64,000 nucleotides of DNA, from positions 1 through 64,000 of the IMG/VR virus record IMGVR_UViG_3300031414_000001. One strand, written 5' to 3'. The notes beneath the pieces were generated by a model, which worked only from the letters and a program-made list of their open reading frames with translations, was not told the origin of the DNA and searched no databases. Shown one piece after another: positions 3,448 through 24,289 of the stretch (position 1 is its first letter; each line of letters begins with the position of its first letter). Both the position numbers and the translations under genes were made by a program. This DNA is from a virus (lineage: Duplodnaviria > Heunggongvirae > Uroviricota > Caudoviricetes).

Positions 3448-3520
3448 TGCTCCAAGTAGGATTTGAACCCACGGCTTCCTCATTACAAGTGAGGCACTCT
3501 ACCAACTGAGTTATTGGAGC
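3448..3520 (-). tRNA. tRNA-Thr(TGT)
   Basis: GCTCCAA/TTGGAGC acceptor, CCTCA-CTTGTAA-TGAGG anticodon arm, GTGGG-TTCAAAT-CCTAC T-arm; 3' end A-CTA, CCA not encoded. Confidence 0.95.
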
Positions 3521-6666: not shown

Positions 6667-6741
6667 TGGCGGGAGCACAAGGAATCGAACCCTGATCTTG
6701 TGGTTTGGAGCCACACATAATCGCCGTTATACTATACTCCC
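6667..6741 (-). tRNA. tRNA-Trp(CCA)
   Basis: GGGAGTA/TGCTCCC acceptor, TGTGG-CTCCAAA-CCACA, T-loop TTCGATT, encoded CCA. Confidence 0.95.
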
Positions 6742-10482: not shown

Positions 10483-10569
10483 CGGAAGGTGAGGGATTCG
10501 AACCCTCAAGCCGATTCACACCGACCGACGGATTAGCAATCCGCTCCAATACCGTTATGGGAACCTTCC
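10483..10569 (-). tRNA. tRNA-Ser(GCT)
   Basis: GGAAGGT/ACCTTCC acceptor, loop TTGCTAA, long variable arm, GAGGG-TTCGAAT-CCCTC, G discriminator; CCA not encoded. Confidence 0.95.
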
Positions 10570-10579
10570 AATACTTACA

Positions 10580-19950: not shown

Positions 19951-20889
19951 TCAGTTATTCCAGTCGTACAAGTTTTTAGCTAAATCTATGATTCCTTCTG
20001 AATGAGTAATCTTTTGTACCCACTCTTGAGGAATACCATCAATACCATAGTACGCTCCAGCCAACTGACCAGTAATAGCAGCTACAGTATCGGCATCATC
20101 ACCTAAGTTCGCAGCTAAGAGTACTGCTTCCTTATATGAAGAAGTTGTTATGAAGCACCATAAAGCAGCTTCAAGTGAATCAATTACGTATCCAGTACTT
20201 TTAATAGTATCTCGTGTTTTAGATAAGATATTACTAAGATTAATCGTATTTTGAACAGTTTCATTGGTAATACCAAATTTTTCAGGATCGGTATCTTCCA
20301 TTATATCAATAATATCAATCTTATCATAACCCTGAATAGCACGGTTCAACATAATAGCGAATGCTACACATGATTGTACTGGTACTTCATTCGCATGAGT
20401 TGTAGTTGAACTTAACGCAGCATAGCGTAAGAGATCAACAAAAGCATCTGAGTACATTTCTTTTGTATTATAGAAAATAGGAATAGGAGCTAAACGCATT
20501 AGACTTCCATTACCAGCATCCATGAAATGTGTATTATGCTCTAAGGTGTTATTCTGAAGAAACTCACGAATAGCAATACGTGTTGTTGTTCCAATATCGA
20601 AACATACTCCAGTACTACTCATATATCCGTGATTCATCCAGTTAGCATAACGAGTTAACTGGTCATTTGAATCAAATCCATAACGAGCTAACAGACTTGT
20701 ACCTAAGCATAAAGCCATACTGGTATCATCTGTCCATTCTCCAGGTTTTAAATCAAATGGACCACCACCAACCATATCTGTTAAATGCTCATATGTATCA
20801 CGTTCATGGAATTCCAATGGCGTACCTAAAGCATCACCAACGGCTAATCCAACTAGAGCACCAATAGCTCTATCTCTGTTATCAATCAT
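19951..20889 (-). CDS. ADP-ribosylglycohydrolase (DraG/ARH family)
   Basis: GLAVGDALG, WTDDTSM, DIGTTT, GNGSLMRLAP, GDDADTVAAITG. Confidence 0.95.
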   Translation of the reverse strand: MIDNRDRAIGALVGLAVGDALGTPLEFHERDTYEHLTDMVGGGPFDLKPGEWTDDTSMALCLGTSLLARYGFDSNDQLTRYANWMNHGYMSSTGVCFDIGTTTRIAIREFLQNNTLEHNTHFMDAGNGSLMRLAPIPIFYNTKEMYSDAFVDLLRYAALSSTTTHANEVPVQSCVAFAIMLNRAIQGYDKIDIIDIMEDTDPEKFGITNETVQNTINLSNILSKTRDTIKSTGYVIDSLEAALWCFITTSSYKEAVLLAANLGDDADTVAAITGQLAGAYYGIDGIPQEWVQKITHSEGIIDLAKNLYDWNN

Positions 20890-21130
20890 TTATTATCCTA
20901 TTTGATTTGCCATTCTTCGAATGTCAAAGAATTTTCGTCAGTACTCACTAATCGTTCGTACTTGACTCAATTCTATTTCTAAATTAAACATTATTCACTG
21001 ACGAGATTTGGGGAGGACATTTTCATCCCCCGCAGGGGAATGAAGACGTAAAAAAAGTACACAATTGTGTACTGAGTTTAATCTGACGATGATAGTCGTC
21101 GGAATCTGTCGAATTGTGAATTTCTCTGAA

Positions 21131-21516
21131 TTTTAGATACAACTTCATTGTACTATTTCTGGAGAACGAAAGCGGGTTGCTCGGTTTCTCTCTATCACAG
21201 TCATATGCAACGGTCGGAGTTTTATACATTGCTCCACTCAGTACTGAATCTATTCGACCAAATCAGTACCTGCCATAAATGGCTCCCTTAGCGTATTGGT
21301 AAGTGACCTTATATGTCTATCGAGGGAATATCTGTATGCTTAATGTATTCCTTTATAGTGCCGCATTGCCGTGAGTGGTACAAACTATGCCAACTTCTGA
21401 CGGGTTTCTTCTGCACTTCGAACTGATTGAACTTCTCAACTGTCCAATTACGTTTTCATCGGACTAGGGTTATACTCGTCAAGGACTATCCTTGTCAATC
21501 AGAGTTGTATCTAAAA
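21131..21516 (-). ncRNA. Candidate large structured non-coding RNA (~390 nt)
   Basis: 14-bp closing stem TTTTAGATACAACT/AGTTGTATCTAAAA, nested helices, upstream promoter, no credible ORF. Confidence 0.6.
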
Positions 21517-21532
21517 ATATCGTTGTACCATC

Positions 21533-21561
21533 ATTATACCAGATAAAAATGGACCGATCCA
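21533..21561 (-). promoter_or_regulatory. TG(A/G)AAC-class promoter variant driving the candidate ncRNA
   Basis: TGGATC-N17-TATAAT with extended TGG. Confidence 0.6.
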
Positions 21562-21573
21562 AAAATCTTAATT

Positions 21574-21602
21574 AAAAAAATACCAGCACGAGGCTGGTAT
21601 TT
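21574..21602 (-). terminator. Intrinsic terminator
   Basis: AAATACCAGC-CTCGT-GCTGGTATTTTTTT. Confidence 0.8.
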
Positions 21603-21609
21603 GTGGTTC

Positions 21610-23742
21610 TTATAGGTCAGTTTTCTCAATGAGCATAACGTGACCATTTACAGGTACTTCGTAGAATGCGAAGCTTGGTACATCTGAGATGTAATATTCT
21701 GAATTATCTAGTACATACTTAGAACGAAGTTCATCAGTTAGTAATTCAAATGGGATATAGAAATCACCATTTTCTAGTCCAGTATTAACTTTCACTAGAT
21801 TAGCACCAGTAAGAAGTTCTTTAACTCCAGAAGTACGTGTTTCAGTACGTTCTTTGCGTGAAGCATGAGCGGTTAGAGCTTCCCAATCAATGATAAGATT
21901 AACTTCATCTTTCAATGAGTTGAAATCCTGTTCCATGTCAAGTAGTGCTTTGCGAATCTTAGCAGTACTGTCACGTACAAAGGTATTGTGCTTATTCACA
22001 CGATTCAAGAACTCTTGAACTAAATCGCGATCTAGAACCTGATGTAGTTCAGATACGAATTGAGCAGTAATAGCAGGTTGTTCTGGTTTCTCAATCCATC
22101 CAGTATCCAAGCTATTCATCATATCATGGAATTTCTGAATCTTCTCAATTGGAGTATTGGAACCTTCCAAGTACTTGATTAGTACTGTAGTAGGTGTGAA
22201 CAAATCCCATCCAACGATGTTATGAGAAGCAGCATATTCATCGAACTTGCCAAAGCTGATTAGAGCAACTTTAAGTTCAATGGTTTCAACTACGGTATCA
22301 CCAATACTGAACTGAGCAAGTTCTTCTTCAGTAAGAGGTTCATGGTTTTCTGAATCTGGTGCTGACGCAGTATATGTGTTGTTTTCAGATACTTCAAAAT
22401 CAACATCTGCTAGACGAATCTTAGAACCACCTAGAATGGTTTCTTCACCATCTACTTTCATAACGTCCAGTAGTTTTTGCATTTCAGCAATATTACGTTC
22501 ACGACCAGTTAATAGTGATAGTGTACGTTCTGGTAATTTATATGGTTTATCATTAGCGATAGCATCTAAATCTGAAATTAGATTTGCTATATCTTGTGAT
22601 GTTTTGTCAGTAGGTTGACTGTTGATGAAGTTCAACCATTGTTCATGTCCAGGGTGGCGTGGACTACCTGGATGTGTAGGATCAGATGCACCTGGAACTA
22701 CAGGAATTTCAGTACCTTCAATATCCATACGCAATGCTTCTTCCATAGTTAGGTTCTCACCTAGTACTGAACGAACTGATTGCATTAGTTCTTTAAGAAT
22801 ATCTTGTTCAGAACGATCTGACTTCTGTAGTTCAACTAGATTTTCTTGTAAATCAAAATCGAATACAAATTCAGCTAGATTCTGATCTTGGATATTGTAG
22901 TAATCCATCACTGATTGAATTTCAGAAATATATTCAGCATTCCCAATACGAATGTTATCAACTAAAAATACATCTTCAGAAGGATGATTTTCAATATCAA
23001 CCATTAATTCTTTATAAGCATTGTCTAGTTCAGAAAACGCATCAAGAATTTCACGCATTTCTTGTACTTCTTTTTCTTGACGTACAGCAGCATCTACAAC
23101 AGCATTTTTCTCAGATTCAATGATAAGTTCACGAACTGCTTTTAGGTTATCACGAATTTCCTGAATTTGTTCTTCAGTAAGTTCGTCATCTGGTGTACTT
23201 GGTTCTGGTGCTTCAGAACGAGCAGTTTGAAGAAGACGGACAGTACCGGTATCTTTGTTGTAAGTACTATAATCAATAACAACATTACATTGTTTCTCAA
23301 TTAGTACTAGACCTTTATCAGTACTGATTGATACAAGACCATCGTAAGTACTAAGTTGACCTAGTTTGAATTCTTTAGTCAAAAGATAATCAATTTCTGG
23401 ATCATGGTCAAAAATAATAGCCATTGCTGCTAGTGGTTCATCGGATTTTTGTTCAGCAAATGCTTCCTGTACTGAACCTTCAGTATATGCTGGGTTATCT
23501 TTAACAATATCTTCAACGACATTGATTAGACTGAATTCTTTACCATCAACTTCTAGATCAAACGTTGCTAATCCTTCAGTTGGGGTAGCTTCGATGTACA
23601 TAATAGCATTCTTAGGCGTTACTGAGTAACGAATGATGCTGACATTTCCAACTTCAGCTTGAAGCTTGTCTTTCAGTACTTGAACAGAATTGATTCCTTC
23701 AATGTTAACTAGTACTTGAATAACGGATTTAGTATTAATCAT
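21610..23742 (-). CDS. Large acidic protein, probably late/virion-associated
   Basis: Start MINTK at 23742 with GGAG RBS; preceded by TATAAATA. Confidence 0.8.
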   Translation of the reverse strand: MINTKSVIQVLVNIEGINSVQVLKDKLQAEVGNVSIIRYSVTPKNAIMYIEATPTEGLATFDLEVDGKEFSLINVVEDIVKDNPAYTEGSVQEAFAEQKSDEPLAAMAIIFDHDPEIDYLLTKEFKLGQLSTYDGLVSISTDKGLVLIEKQCNVVIDYSTYNKDTGTVRLLQTARSEAPEPSTPDDELTEEQIQEIRDNLKAVRELIIESEKNAVVDAAVRQEKEVQEMREILDAFSELDNAYKELMVDIENHPSEDVFLVDNIRIGNAEYISEIQSVMDYYNIQDQNLAEFVFDFDLQENLVELQKSDRSEQDILKELMQSVRSVLGENLTMEEALRMDIEGTEIPVVPGASDPTHPGSPRHPGHEQWLNFINSQPTDKTSQDIANLISDLDAIANDKPYKLPERTLSLLTGRERNIAEMQKLLDVMKVDGEETILGGSKIRLADVDFEVSENNTYTASAPDSENHEPLTEEELAQFSIGDTVVETIELKVALISFGKFDEYAASHNIVGWDLFTPTTVLIKYLEGSNTPIEKIQKFHDMMNSLDTGWIEKPEQPAITAQFVSELHQVLDRDLVQEFLNRVNKHNTFVRDSTAKIRKALLDMEQDFNSLKDEVNLIIDWEALTAHASRKERTETRTSGVKELLTGANLVKVNTGLENGDFYIPFELLTDELRSKYVLDNSEYYISDVPSFAFYEVPVNGHVMLIEKTDL

Positions 23743-23777
23743 ATAACACTCCATGTTGTATAAAAAAAAGGTAGAAC

Positions 23778-23785
23778 TATTTATA
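23778..23785 (-). promoter_or_regulatory. T4-type late promoter
   Basis: TATAAATA. Confidence 0.65.
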
Positions 23786-23803
23786 AATTTGATCATTCTT
23801 TGA

Positions 23804-24289
23804 TCAGTTCGATTCTTTGAGGACAGTTCTAATATCCTCGTAACTTGCACTAAGCCAGTCGAACCCTTCTGGCATTATAACTCTACCGTGATATTCATAG
23901 TAATGAACGAAGGGTAAAGTACTTTCTTGTAATAATTTGGCTATAGCTGGATTATGAGCAATCTTAGTTACTAACATATTCTCCATGATTTCTAAATCTT
24001 CATGGGATAATCCGAGAACATCCAGCCTATCATCTCTATATTTACGTCCAGCTTTTTTCGCTTCAAAACCGTGTAAGGGTCTAAGGTCGTCGTGTTGTTG
24101 TCCTGTAAGATACCAGTACCAGAATGCTTCAGCACTGGCAAAGTAACCATAAGGTTCATAGACGAAGGGGGAACGTGCGAAGTTCGATAGTAGCCGACCT
24201 AATTCAGTTCTGGCTTGACTATAGATGTTGATGTGAGTTACACCATCTTCTTCAGGATCGTAAATGGGGGTTGTATCAAATTCAAACAT
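23804..24289 (-). CDS. NADAR/YbiA-like protein
   Basis: LGRLLSNFARSPF....FASAEAFWY, AKKAG, K...NPAIAKLL pattern; start 24289. Confidence 0.55.
   Translation of the reverse strand: MFEFDTTPIYDPEEDGVTHINIYSQARTELGRLLSNFARSPFVYEPYGYFASAEAFWYWYLTGQQHDDLRPLHGFEAKKAGRKYRDDRLDVLGLSHEDLEIMENMLVTKIAHNPAIAKLLQESTLPFVHYYEYHGRVIMPEGFDWLSASYEDIRTVLKESN

Follow-up and report, generated by a model that had tools for sequence, protein, structure and literature searches.

An uncatalogued family of large structured RNAs in Rak2-like jumbo phages and enterobacterial integrative islands

Large RNAs with as much conserved tertiary structure as the one described here, which is several hundred nucleotides (nt) long, are rare, and most of those known have proved to be ribozymes, cores of ribonucleoproteins or self-assembling cages. 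In two such families, ROOL and GOLLD, the 'pseudoknots' detected by covariation are intermolecular bridges in RNA-only cages (PMC12286853). The jumbo phage PA5oct, a relative of the phage considered here, has four RNAs free of open reading frames (ORFs), ncRNA001-004, which are supported by RNA-seq and are 236-619 nt long, and two of them account for 1.2-5.1% of phage reads (PMC7318152). Here we analyse a locus in the first 64 kb (64,000 nt; hereafter the window) of a 370,971-bp jumbo-phage record, IMG/VR IMGVR_UViG_3300031414_000001. The locus occupies a 720-nt gap (20890-21609) which, as the original prediction had it, is the window's largest interval without an ORF, here counted from 80 amino acids (aa) upwards. 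That prediction placed in the gap a multibranched RNA of about 390 nt with a promoter of its own. We find that the locus is very probably a transcribed gene for a structured RNA on the minus strand, and that what is conserved over its ~475-530 nt is a fold and no reading frame. Beyond what had been predicted, the RNA has at least four pseudoknots, is one of five paralogs in its genome (c1 to c5, c1 being the copy in the window), and has copies on bacterial islands.

The evidence for the fold is comparative and was obtained from alignments of 42, and then 65, non-redundant copies. Applied to the 42-copy alignment, RNAalifold predicted 66 pairs, 43 of which have compensatory double changes, and an unbiased scan of all column pairs in both alignments returned the same helices together with the long-range pairings. 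The curated structure (42 copies) contains 100 pairs in 19 helices, including four pseudoknots. Its pairs are formed in 88.6% of cases, compared with 37-43% for slid controls in which the partners were shifted by 1-3 columns, and 70 of the 100 change on both sides. For covariation the structure scores 0.479 and the controls 0.08-0.11, and none of 500 shuffles reached any of these measures. Two further pairings, the long-range UGA/UCA proposed by RNAalifold and a separately considered GAUGAG/CUCGUC, were dropped: their letters are invariant, and such variation as is observed would break the pairs. Folding of the single sequence is modest (z = -2.0; 3 of 100 shuffles fold equally well), so the case rests on comparison and not on energetics.

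The same comparison identifies the strand. Within the supported helices, G.U combinations outnumber A.C and C.A combinations by 236 to 40. Such an excess indicates that the fold is selected on the minus-strand transcript, as neither duplex nor cruciform DNA, nor an RNA from the plus strand, would have it. The 65 copies share no conserved ORF, the longest ORFs (median 61 aa) being scattered in strand and position, and the insertions and deletions sit in hairpin tips and have lengths that are not multiples of three. A protein-coding reading was accordingly rejected, the tiny coding sequences (CDSs) of some GenBank records also being unconserved.

The helices are as follows, in window coordinates that descend from 5' to 3' along the minus-strand RNA.

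P1: CUGAUUGA 21502-21495 with UCAAUCAG 21430-21423, minus strand; 7 of 8 pairs change on both sides, and at least eight different P1 sequences occur.
P2: 21494-21489 with 21485-21480, minus strand, inside P1; 6 of 6 pairs change on both sides.
P3: 21464-21458 with 21448-21442, minus strand, inside P1; near-invariant loop GAAAAyGUA; supported in the RNAalifold register.
Px: GAA 21435-21433 with UUC 21422-21420, minus strand; 100% paired, the middle pair being UA in 21 copies, AU in 12 and CG in 9.
P4: AGUGC 21417-21413 with GCACU 21361-21357, minus strand; 98.6% paired, 4 of 5 pairs changing on both sides.
P5: CCGU 21403-21400 with ACGG 21372-21369, minus strand, inside P4; 98.8% paired.
P5a: 21392-21376, minus strand, a conserved hairpin inside P4.
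PKa: AUG 21366-21364 with CAU 21315-21313, minus strand, spanning P6; 100% paired, one pair being GC in 32 copies and AU in 10, the other two having single double changes.
P6: GGAAUA 21351-21346 with UAUUCC 21330-21325, minus strand; all 6 pairs covary, and each has 4-5 pair types.
P8: GCCA 21283-21280 with UGGC 21275-21272, minus strand; in the alignment of 65 copies all 4 pairs covary.
P9: 21269-21241, minus strand, a long hairpin; 11 of 12 pairs change on both sides.
PKb: P9 loop GUCGAAU 21258-21252 with AUUCGAC 21114-21108, minus strand; 99.7% paired, covarying at 6 of 7 pairs (42 copies) or 7 of 7 (65 copies).
P10: 21236-21215, minus strand.
PKc: GUUGC 21211-21207 with GCAAC 21180-21176 in the P12 loop, minus strand; 100% paired, 3-4 covarying pairs.
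P11: UGUGA 21199-21195 with UCACA 21119-21115, minus strand; 100% paired, 3-4 covarying pairs.
P12: GAGAG 21192-21188 with CUUUC 21172-21168, minus strand; 100% paired, 3-4 covarying pairs.
P13: UCU 21165-21163 with AGA 21125-21123, minus strand; 99.2% paired, 3 of 3 pairs covarying.
P14: GACGA 21100-21096 with UCGUC 21089-21085, minus strand, a weak hairpin, 69% paired in the c1-based register.
P15: UCCCC 21039-21035 with GGGGA 21030-21026, minus strand, a hairpin, 98% paired, its sole variation being C to U opposite G.

Several of these elements are informative beyond their counts. Px is a loop-to-strand pseudoknot whose loop is the 3' strand of P1, and its stem lengthens where P1 shortens. 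PKb exists in its own version in each of c1, c3 and c4, while a single version is common to c2 and c5. The C-to-U change in P15 preserves pairing on the minus-strand RNA only. P3, P8 and P14 score low in the c1-based register; the first two are supported in other registers. Between the helices lie near-invariant unpaired stretches (GAAAAyGUA, GCAGAAGAAACCCG, CGGCAAUGCGGCAC, GAUAGACAUAUAAGG, CUAAGGGAG, GACCGUUG and GAAACAGAGCAACCCGC), and the peripheral hairpins are capped by GNRA loops. As a separate observation, the palindrome GTAC/AGTACT underlies many hairpins, both in the RNA and in its relatives on islands (21241-21269 and 21056-21073 in the window; the leaders of copies L115 and L125).

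The hairpins and inverted repeats that the original prediction had listed were all found in place, and its first domain is real: the closing pair CTGATTGA/TCAATCAG and the hairpin CAAGGA/TCCTTG have compensatory changes, and GTCCGAT/ATTGGAC is supported in the RNAalifold register. Its second domain stands in part. The hairpins GGAATA/TATTCC, GCCA/TGGC and GTACTGA/TCAGTAC have compensatory changes, but the proposed closure CCACTCA/TGAGTGG is mostly unpaired in other copies.

The RNA had also been proposed to be bounded by a perfect 14-bp stem:

21516-21503 with 21144-21131, minus strand: 14-bp helix between the 5' leader and a 'UACAAUG-AAGUUGUAUCU-AAAA' module.

The stem is present in the window, but it is specific to c1 and does not bound the RNA. 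It is limited to the positional orthologs of c1, where a G.U change is tolerated (Munch/Kae01). In several other copies the comparable helix is a local hairpin (GGACGCAAUUU/AAGUUGCGUCC, GAUGGAUUUA/UAAAUCCGUC or GAUCAA/UUGAUC) that has UACAAUA as its loop and covaries. The 3' strand of the 14-bp stem is part of a module, UACAAUr-(helix strand)-AAAAUUy, and this module sits at P8 in c2, c4 and c5 and at P13 in c1 and c3. In c1 the 5' strand of the helix has moved to the leader, so that the helix connects the 5' end with the 3' domain. Each paralog of this genome has the module at one site only; several other copies, mostly from islands, have 'UACAAUA...GAUCCGUC...AAAAUUU' at both P8 and P13:

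L115:11948-12551, copy with the module at both sites.
L125:3507-4122, copy with the module at both sites.
L166, L128, L136 and L142, further copies with the module at both sites.

The following elements bear on transcription of the RNA.

21602-21578, minus strand: intrinsic terminator of the upstream 746-aa gene, a 10-bp stem with 4 GC pairs followed by a T-run.
21561-21533, minus strand: promoter, TGGATC (21561-21556), 14 nt, extended -10 box TGGTATAAT (21541-21533).
4446, 10579, 21533, 43684, 53417, 56300 and 62790, minus strand: sites of the promoter class in the window, given as the last base of TATAAT.
21526-21049, minus strand: short form of the RNA, ~475 nt, from the predicted start to a terminator-like hairpin and U7, kept in the five paralogs and in 65 non-redundant copies.
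21073-21056, with U7 at 21055-21049, minus strand: terminator-like hairpin from the terminator scan.
21048-20998, minus strand: conserved 3' extension, hairpin P15 and tail CAAAUCUCGUCAG (21010-20998).

The promoter points into the gap, as had been predicted, and has a predicted transcription start near 21526. It is a member of a phage-wide class: the 29-nt motif TG[GA]A[AT]C-N13-15-TGnTATAAT has 34 occurrences in the genome, every one of them on the minus strand, compared with 0-1 in shuffles. These 34 sites precede mRNAs, several tRNA genes near 328-369 kb and all five copies of the RNA, and TGnTATAAT is almost unchanged across 43 copies. A promoter class 'TGAAACG + TATA' has been described for phages CBB and GAP32 (PMC5259590), and the promoter of the RNA corresponds to it. 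Upstream, the terminator insulates the RNA unit from the preceding gene, in agreement with the original prediction.

The predicted length of ~390 nt proved too short. Strands on which the fold depends, the 3' strands of P11 and PKb (21119-21108), lie outside the 14-bp stem. From the predicted start, the RNA would measure about 475 nt to the U-run or about 530 nt to 20998. The terminator-like hairpin and U-run are found in c1-c3 and in an Escherichia coli copy, and are missing from c4 and c5; the 3' extension is found in every sequence of the 42-copy alignment and in the copy on the E. coli island.

The genes that flank the locus are on the minus strand. They are a 746-aa gene of unknown family (21610-23850) and an ADP-ribosylglycohydrolase gene (19951-20889, minus strand; Pfam E = 1e-75). 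Between the RNA tail and the latter, the segment 20904-20995 (minus strand) is partly conserved among the paralogs and holds the box AAAAUUCUUGAC; TTGACA (20927-20922) may serve the downstream gene as a -35 element of the sigma-70 type, but no good -10 follows it at c1. Elsewhere in the window, three tRNA genes recognised by Rfam lie on the minus strand (3448-3520, 6670-6741 and 10483-10569), the last of them directly behind the promoter-class site at 10579.

BLAST of the gap against its own genome revealed the four further copies, all on the minus strand, at ~105.6, 186.7, 251.1 and 311.4 kb, each in an ORF-free gap of 660-965 nt. The five paralogs have 60-72% pairwise identity, and their alignment consists of invariant blocks split by hairpins that differ in sequence yet still pair. 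The copies are 84, 81, 64, 60 and 81 kb apart, a spacing more even than expected by chance (P of about 0.001 for a circular and 0.005 for a linear arrangement). G+C content is 39.5% for the element and 38.3% for the genome. Same-strand genes follow c1, c3, c4 and c5 and a convergent gene follows c2. Pfam searches with the genes flanking all five copies found no shared adjacent protein gene, and the downstream genes are unrelated among the paralogs.

Relatives of the RNA are present in every Rak2-like jumbo phage examined. The phages most closely related to this one are Xanthomonas phage XbC2, with 88% identity over the gap, Erwinia phage Kaldavass, GAP32, CBB, Yersinia phage fHe-Yen9-04 and Serratia phage BF; 121Q, Munch, 7t3 and RaK2 are remoter, and all these phages are Rak2-like myoviruses. 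BLAST detects the element in 72 phage records, most of which have it at 4-5 places and those of the Klebsiella/RaK2 group at 1-2 detectable ones, and a direct search of five phage records counted 5, 5, 5, 5 and 4 copies. Where examined, the copies retain their neighbours, as does the copy that adjoins SbcC/endonuclease VII and the baseplate hub.

Full-length copies were also found in nine enterobacterial chromosomes. E. coli LR-29-1 and a second E. coli genome carry them at 73% identity. A scan of 185,579 species genomes with a 20-base degenerate pattern, followed by nhmmer, added eight enterobacterial copies (Citrobacter amalonaticus, Serratia fonticola, Serratia sp., Silvania hatchlandensis, Buttiauxella, Enterobacter chinensis, Enterobacteriaceae RIT714 and an uncultured Enterobacteriaceae metagenome-assembled genome, MAG) as well as a match on a 2.8-kb contig binned as Clostridium.

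Genomic context was analysed for seven of the nine chromosomes: those of E. coli, Citrobacter, Serratia sp., Buttiauxella, RIT714, Enterobacter and the uncultured MAG. In Citrobacter and Serratia sp. the RNA is immediately downstream of a large serine recombinase; in Buttiauxella, RIT714 and Enterobacter it is immediately downstream of a tyrosine integrase. A CI-like repressor (helix-turn-helix and S24 peptidase, confirmed by Pfam) faces the Citrobacter and uncultured-MAG copies, and one judged from ORF size and order faces those of Buttiauxella and Enterobacter. The E. coli copy follows a 303-aa ORF and is ~1.7 kb beyond an integrase fragment. Every island copy inspected has its own extended -10 box. 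An integrase attachment target was rejected as an explanation: full-length copies lie beside two unrelated integrase families and at different chromosomal sites.

Three islands were examined in full and measure ~9-10 kb each. Two of them, in C. amalonaticus (L174, between ppdD-hofB and nadC) and E. chinensis (L175), occupy the nadC hotspot, are ~9 kb long and have no virion genes. Both have the order integrase, RNA, CI-like repressor, Cro-like gene, two or three unannotated ORFs, resolvase and cargo. The position of the RNA is the same in the two, while the integrase families and the cargo beyond the resolvase differ. The Citrobacter cargo is a GmrSD type IV restriction enzyme; that of Enterobacter (L175:12204-14564) comprises DarT, a 561-aa ADP-ribosylglycohydrolase protein and a UvrD-like helicase. 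These islands may be satellites or defence islands. DarT is a single-stranded DNA ADP-ribosyltransferase, and the phage ADP-ribosylglycohydrolase beside c1 could counter a DarT-type defence, although their co-occurrence is perhaps chance. The third island, in E. coli, adjoins ffs and is organised differently, its other genes being unannotated or matching only domains of unknown function (DUFs).

No constant partner protein was found in the islands by Pfam and PHROGs searches with the backbone proteins or by an Atlas look-up of a 286-aa protein. When the E. coli island proteins were compared with the phage genome by tblastn, the only match was a weak one to DUF4326 (194235-194489). In a FastTree phylogeny of 452 core columns, the bacterial copies form two groups, each allied with particular jumbo-phage copies, and the phage copy L142, which has the SbcC/endonuclease VII synteny, nests among island copies. 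This short tree, which has no resampling support, suggests that islands and jumbo phages have repeatedly exchanged the RNA.

The covariance-model search of Rfam that accompanied the original prediction as a proposed check was run and returned no family. With Rfam 15 at gathering thresholds, nothing in the window matched but the three tRNAs, and at E values up to 10 the interval 20800-21700 gave only chance-level matches (E 0.4-9) to unrelated small RNAs. There was no match to the covariance models of ROOL (RF03087), GOLLD (RF01998), SRP, 6S, HEARO, OLE or raiA, nor to that of tmRNA, an identity that had been set aside from the outset. A possible resemblance to RNase P RNA, suggested by short phrases, did not survive: there is no covariance match at E up to 10, and ACAGAGCAACCCGCUU, comparable with the RNase P phrase ACAGAACCCGGCUUA, is the P12 loop that pairs with GUUGC in PKc and not a P4 strand. 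A group I intron (RF00028) was also rejected, as there is no Rfam match and the RNA, located between a terminator and the next gene and having its own promoter, interrupts no gene. PA5oct ncRNA002 is not a detectable homolog by nhmmer with filters off, and BLAST of the whole PA5oct record found none. No description of the element was found in the papers on CBB, fEgEco12 and PA5oct, in a 2026 preprint on noncoding sequence space or by keyword searches of the literature. The lack of an Rfam match, the dedicated promoter and the strong covariation specific to the minus strand support what the prediction had called an unclassified large phage RNA.

As to function, we favour an abundant, trans-acting structural RNA, self-assembling or scaffolding protein, and give this reading a probability of roughly 0.45. 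The RNA would act in trans and be needed stoichiometrically, as a scaffold, a particle or a sponge would be, to judge from its five copies and their strong promoter class. The complexity of the fold and its GNRA-capped peripheral hairpins suggest a compact three-dimensional particle, which might assemble by itself as ROOL and GOLLD do or might scaffold a protein, and PKb is a candidate bridge between molecules. On these grounds, and because the loop-to-strand pairings of ROOL and GOLLD are intermolecular bridges, we rank the structural reading first. The RNA is independent of any adjacent protein gene, is carried alone, with an extended -10 box of its own, by the bacterial integrative islands, and may have a role in the contest between phage, host and mobile islands. 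A bolder and less likely possibility is that phages of E. coli have in it an RNA-only particle that assembles itself, which would be the third such class besides ROOL and GOLLD. Against the structural reading, the fold would suit a catalytic RNA just as well; the regular spacing of the copies is unexplained by dosage and fits a chromosome-level role better; and a terminator-like hairpin lies within the conserved unit in three of the five paralogs, which makes the true 3' end uncertain.

The spacing is the main attraction of an origin-priming RNA, in which the five loci would be the replication origins of the phage and the transcript would form an R-loop or be processed into a primer, as with T4 oriF/oriG or ColE1 RNA II. 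The fold would then control hybrid formation or recruit the replisome, and islands would copy the element for replication by, or titration of, the jumbo phage. Among the readings considered, only this one explains the spacing, which nonetheless counts as one evolutionary event because the positions of the copies are syntenic across phages. The promoter class, which in CBB is mostly upstream of DNA-synthesis genes, and the T4-type replisome of Rak2-like phages (both PMC5259590) are in keeping with it, as are a conserved C4/G5-6 hairpin after the terminator-like 3' end, the presence of the element in all three fully examined islands despite their differing cargo, and the interleaving of island and phage copies in the tree, which suggests exchange during infection. 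On the other hand, the strand-specific G.U signal reflects selection at the RNA level over the whole length, and the element, at a G+C content close to that of the genome, is no AT-rich element. Cumulative GC skew has no sawtooth at the copies, which is a weak test, as skew follows gene orientation. We also know of no R-loop origin that needs a multi-pseudoknotted fold of ~19 helices with invariant loops. An origin primer is, on balance, unlikely. The same doubt attaches to its boldest form, in which evenly spaced origins would each be fired by a ribozyme-grade primer RNA, and defence islands would repeatedly have copied the origin to be amplified by, or to sabotage, the jumbo-phage replisome.

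A ribozyme, whose conserved unpaired core would be a catalytic centre for self-processing or for action on phage or host RNAs such as tRNAs, would account for the size, the pseudoknots, the GNRA-capped peripheral hairpins and the invariant joining regions, all of which are like those of large ribozymes, and the many tRNA genes of the phage share the promoter class. Since Rfam gave no match to RNase P, to group I or II introns or to small self-cleaving ribozymes, since the RNA interrupts no gene, and since five copies on strong promoters suggest a stoichiometric and not a catalytic need, we regard catalysis as distinctly improbable.

Less probable by far is a cis-acting leader (attenuator, riboswitch or antitermination element) for downstream genes, here the ADP-ribosylglycohydrolase operon. 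The terminator-like hairpin inside the unit, the same-strand genes that follow four of the five paralogs and the lack of a promoter of the 34-member class between the RNA and the next gene at c1 would agree with it. But convergent genes follow c2 and those island copies that have a CI-like repressor opposite them, no relation exists between the genes downstream of the different paralogs, and c4 and c5 lack the hairpin. To our knowledge, the size is also far above that of any riboswitch.

That the locus is no functional RNA but a DNA-level repeat (a recombination or protein-binding site, or a cruciform), which the original prediction had named as a ground for its refutation, or a small-ORF cluster is scarcely credible, for although part of one copy is annotated as repeat_region in a GenBank record and others hold tiny CDSs, the compensatory changes and the G.U excess contradict the former, and the latter is at odds with ORFs that keep neither strand, position nor length and with indels that are not multiples of three.

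Whether the RNA proves to be structural, to prime origins or to serve as a weapon between phages and islands, the outcome would be new for phage RNA biology. Five ancient, evenly spaced paralogs in a 350-kb genome suggest heavy selective investment. The phages and mobile islands that carry the RNA have as their hosts E. coli, Salmonella, Klebsiella, Serratia and Citrobacter, which are genetically tractable, unlike the hosts of ROOL, GOLLD and OLE, and the paralog-specific pseudoknot sequences offer handles for compensatory mutation. The islands themselves are small, integrative and variable in cargo, which includes candidate anti-phage genes (GmrSD; DarT with ADP-ribosylglycohydrolase).

Among known systems, RNase P RNA (RF00010/RF00011) is of a similar size class, has long-range pseudoknots and contains a phrase like AGUGCAGAAGAAA, and the phage genome is rich in tRNA genes. 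T4 oriF/oriG and ColE1 RNA II, the latter a structured RNA of ~550 nt, are likewise promoter-driven noncoding RNAs of several hundred nt, and those of T4 likewise occupy several dispersed sites in a genome of the T4 superfamily; the present fold is far more elaborate and conserved, and has here neither a DNA-unwinding element nor a GC-skew signal. The closest likeness is to ROOL and GOLLD and, loosely, to OLE, with which the RNA has in common a length of ~500 nt or more, many covarying helices and pseudoknot-like long-range pairs. As with ROOL and GOLLD, it is a stand-alone unit on phages and integrated elements without an evident adjacent partner protein, and PKb, which could form in cis or in trans, is a covarying loop-to-strand pairing similar to their cage bridges. 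The ROOL and GOLLD cages are RNA-only homo-oligomers, 8-mers or 14-mers, in which kissing loops and A-minor bridges join the molecules. We conclude that the family has a ROOL/GOLLD-like lifestyle while being a member of neither. ROOL and GOLLD are found in Lactobacillales and in rumen or lake bacteria, whereas this RNA belongs to Enterobacterales and Rak2-like jumbo phages and, unlike them, is present as five diverged, evenly spaced paralogs per genome.

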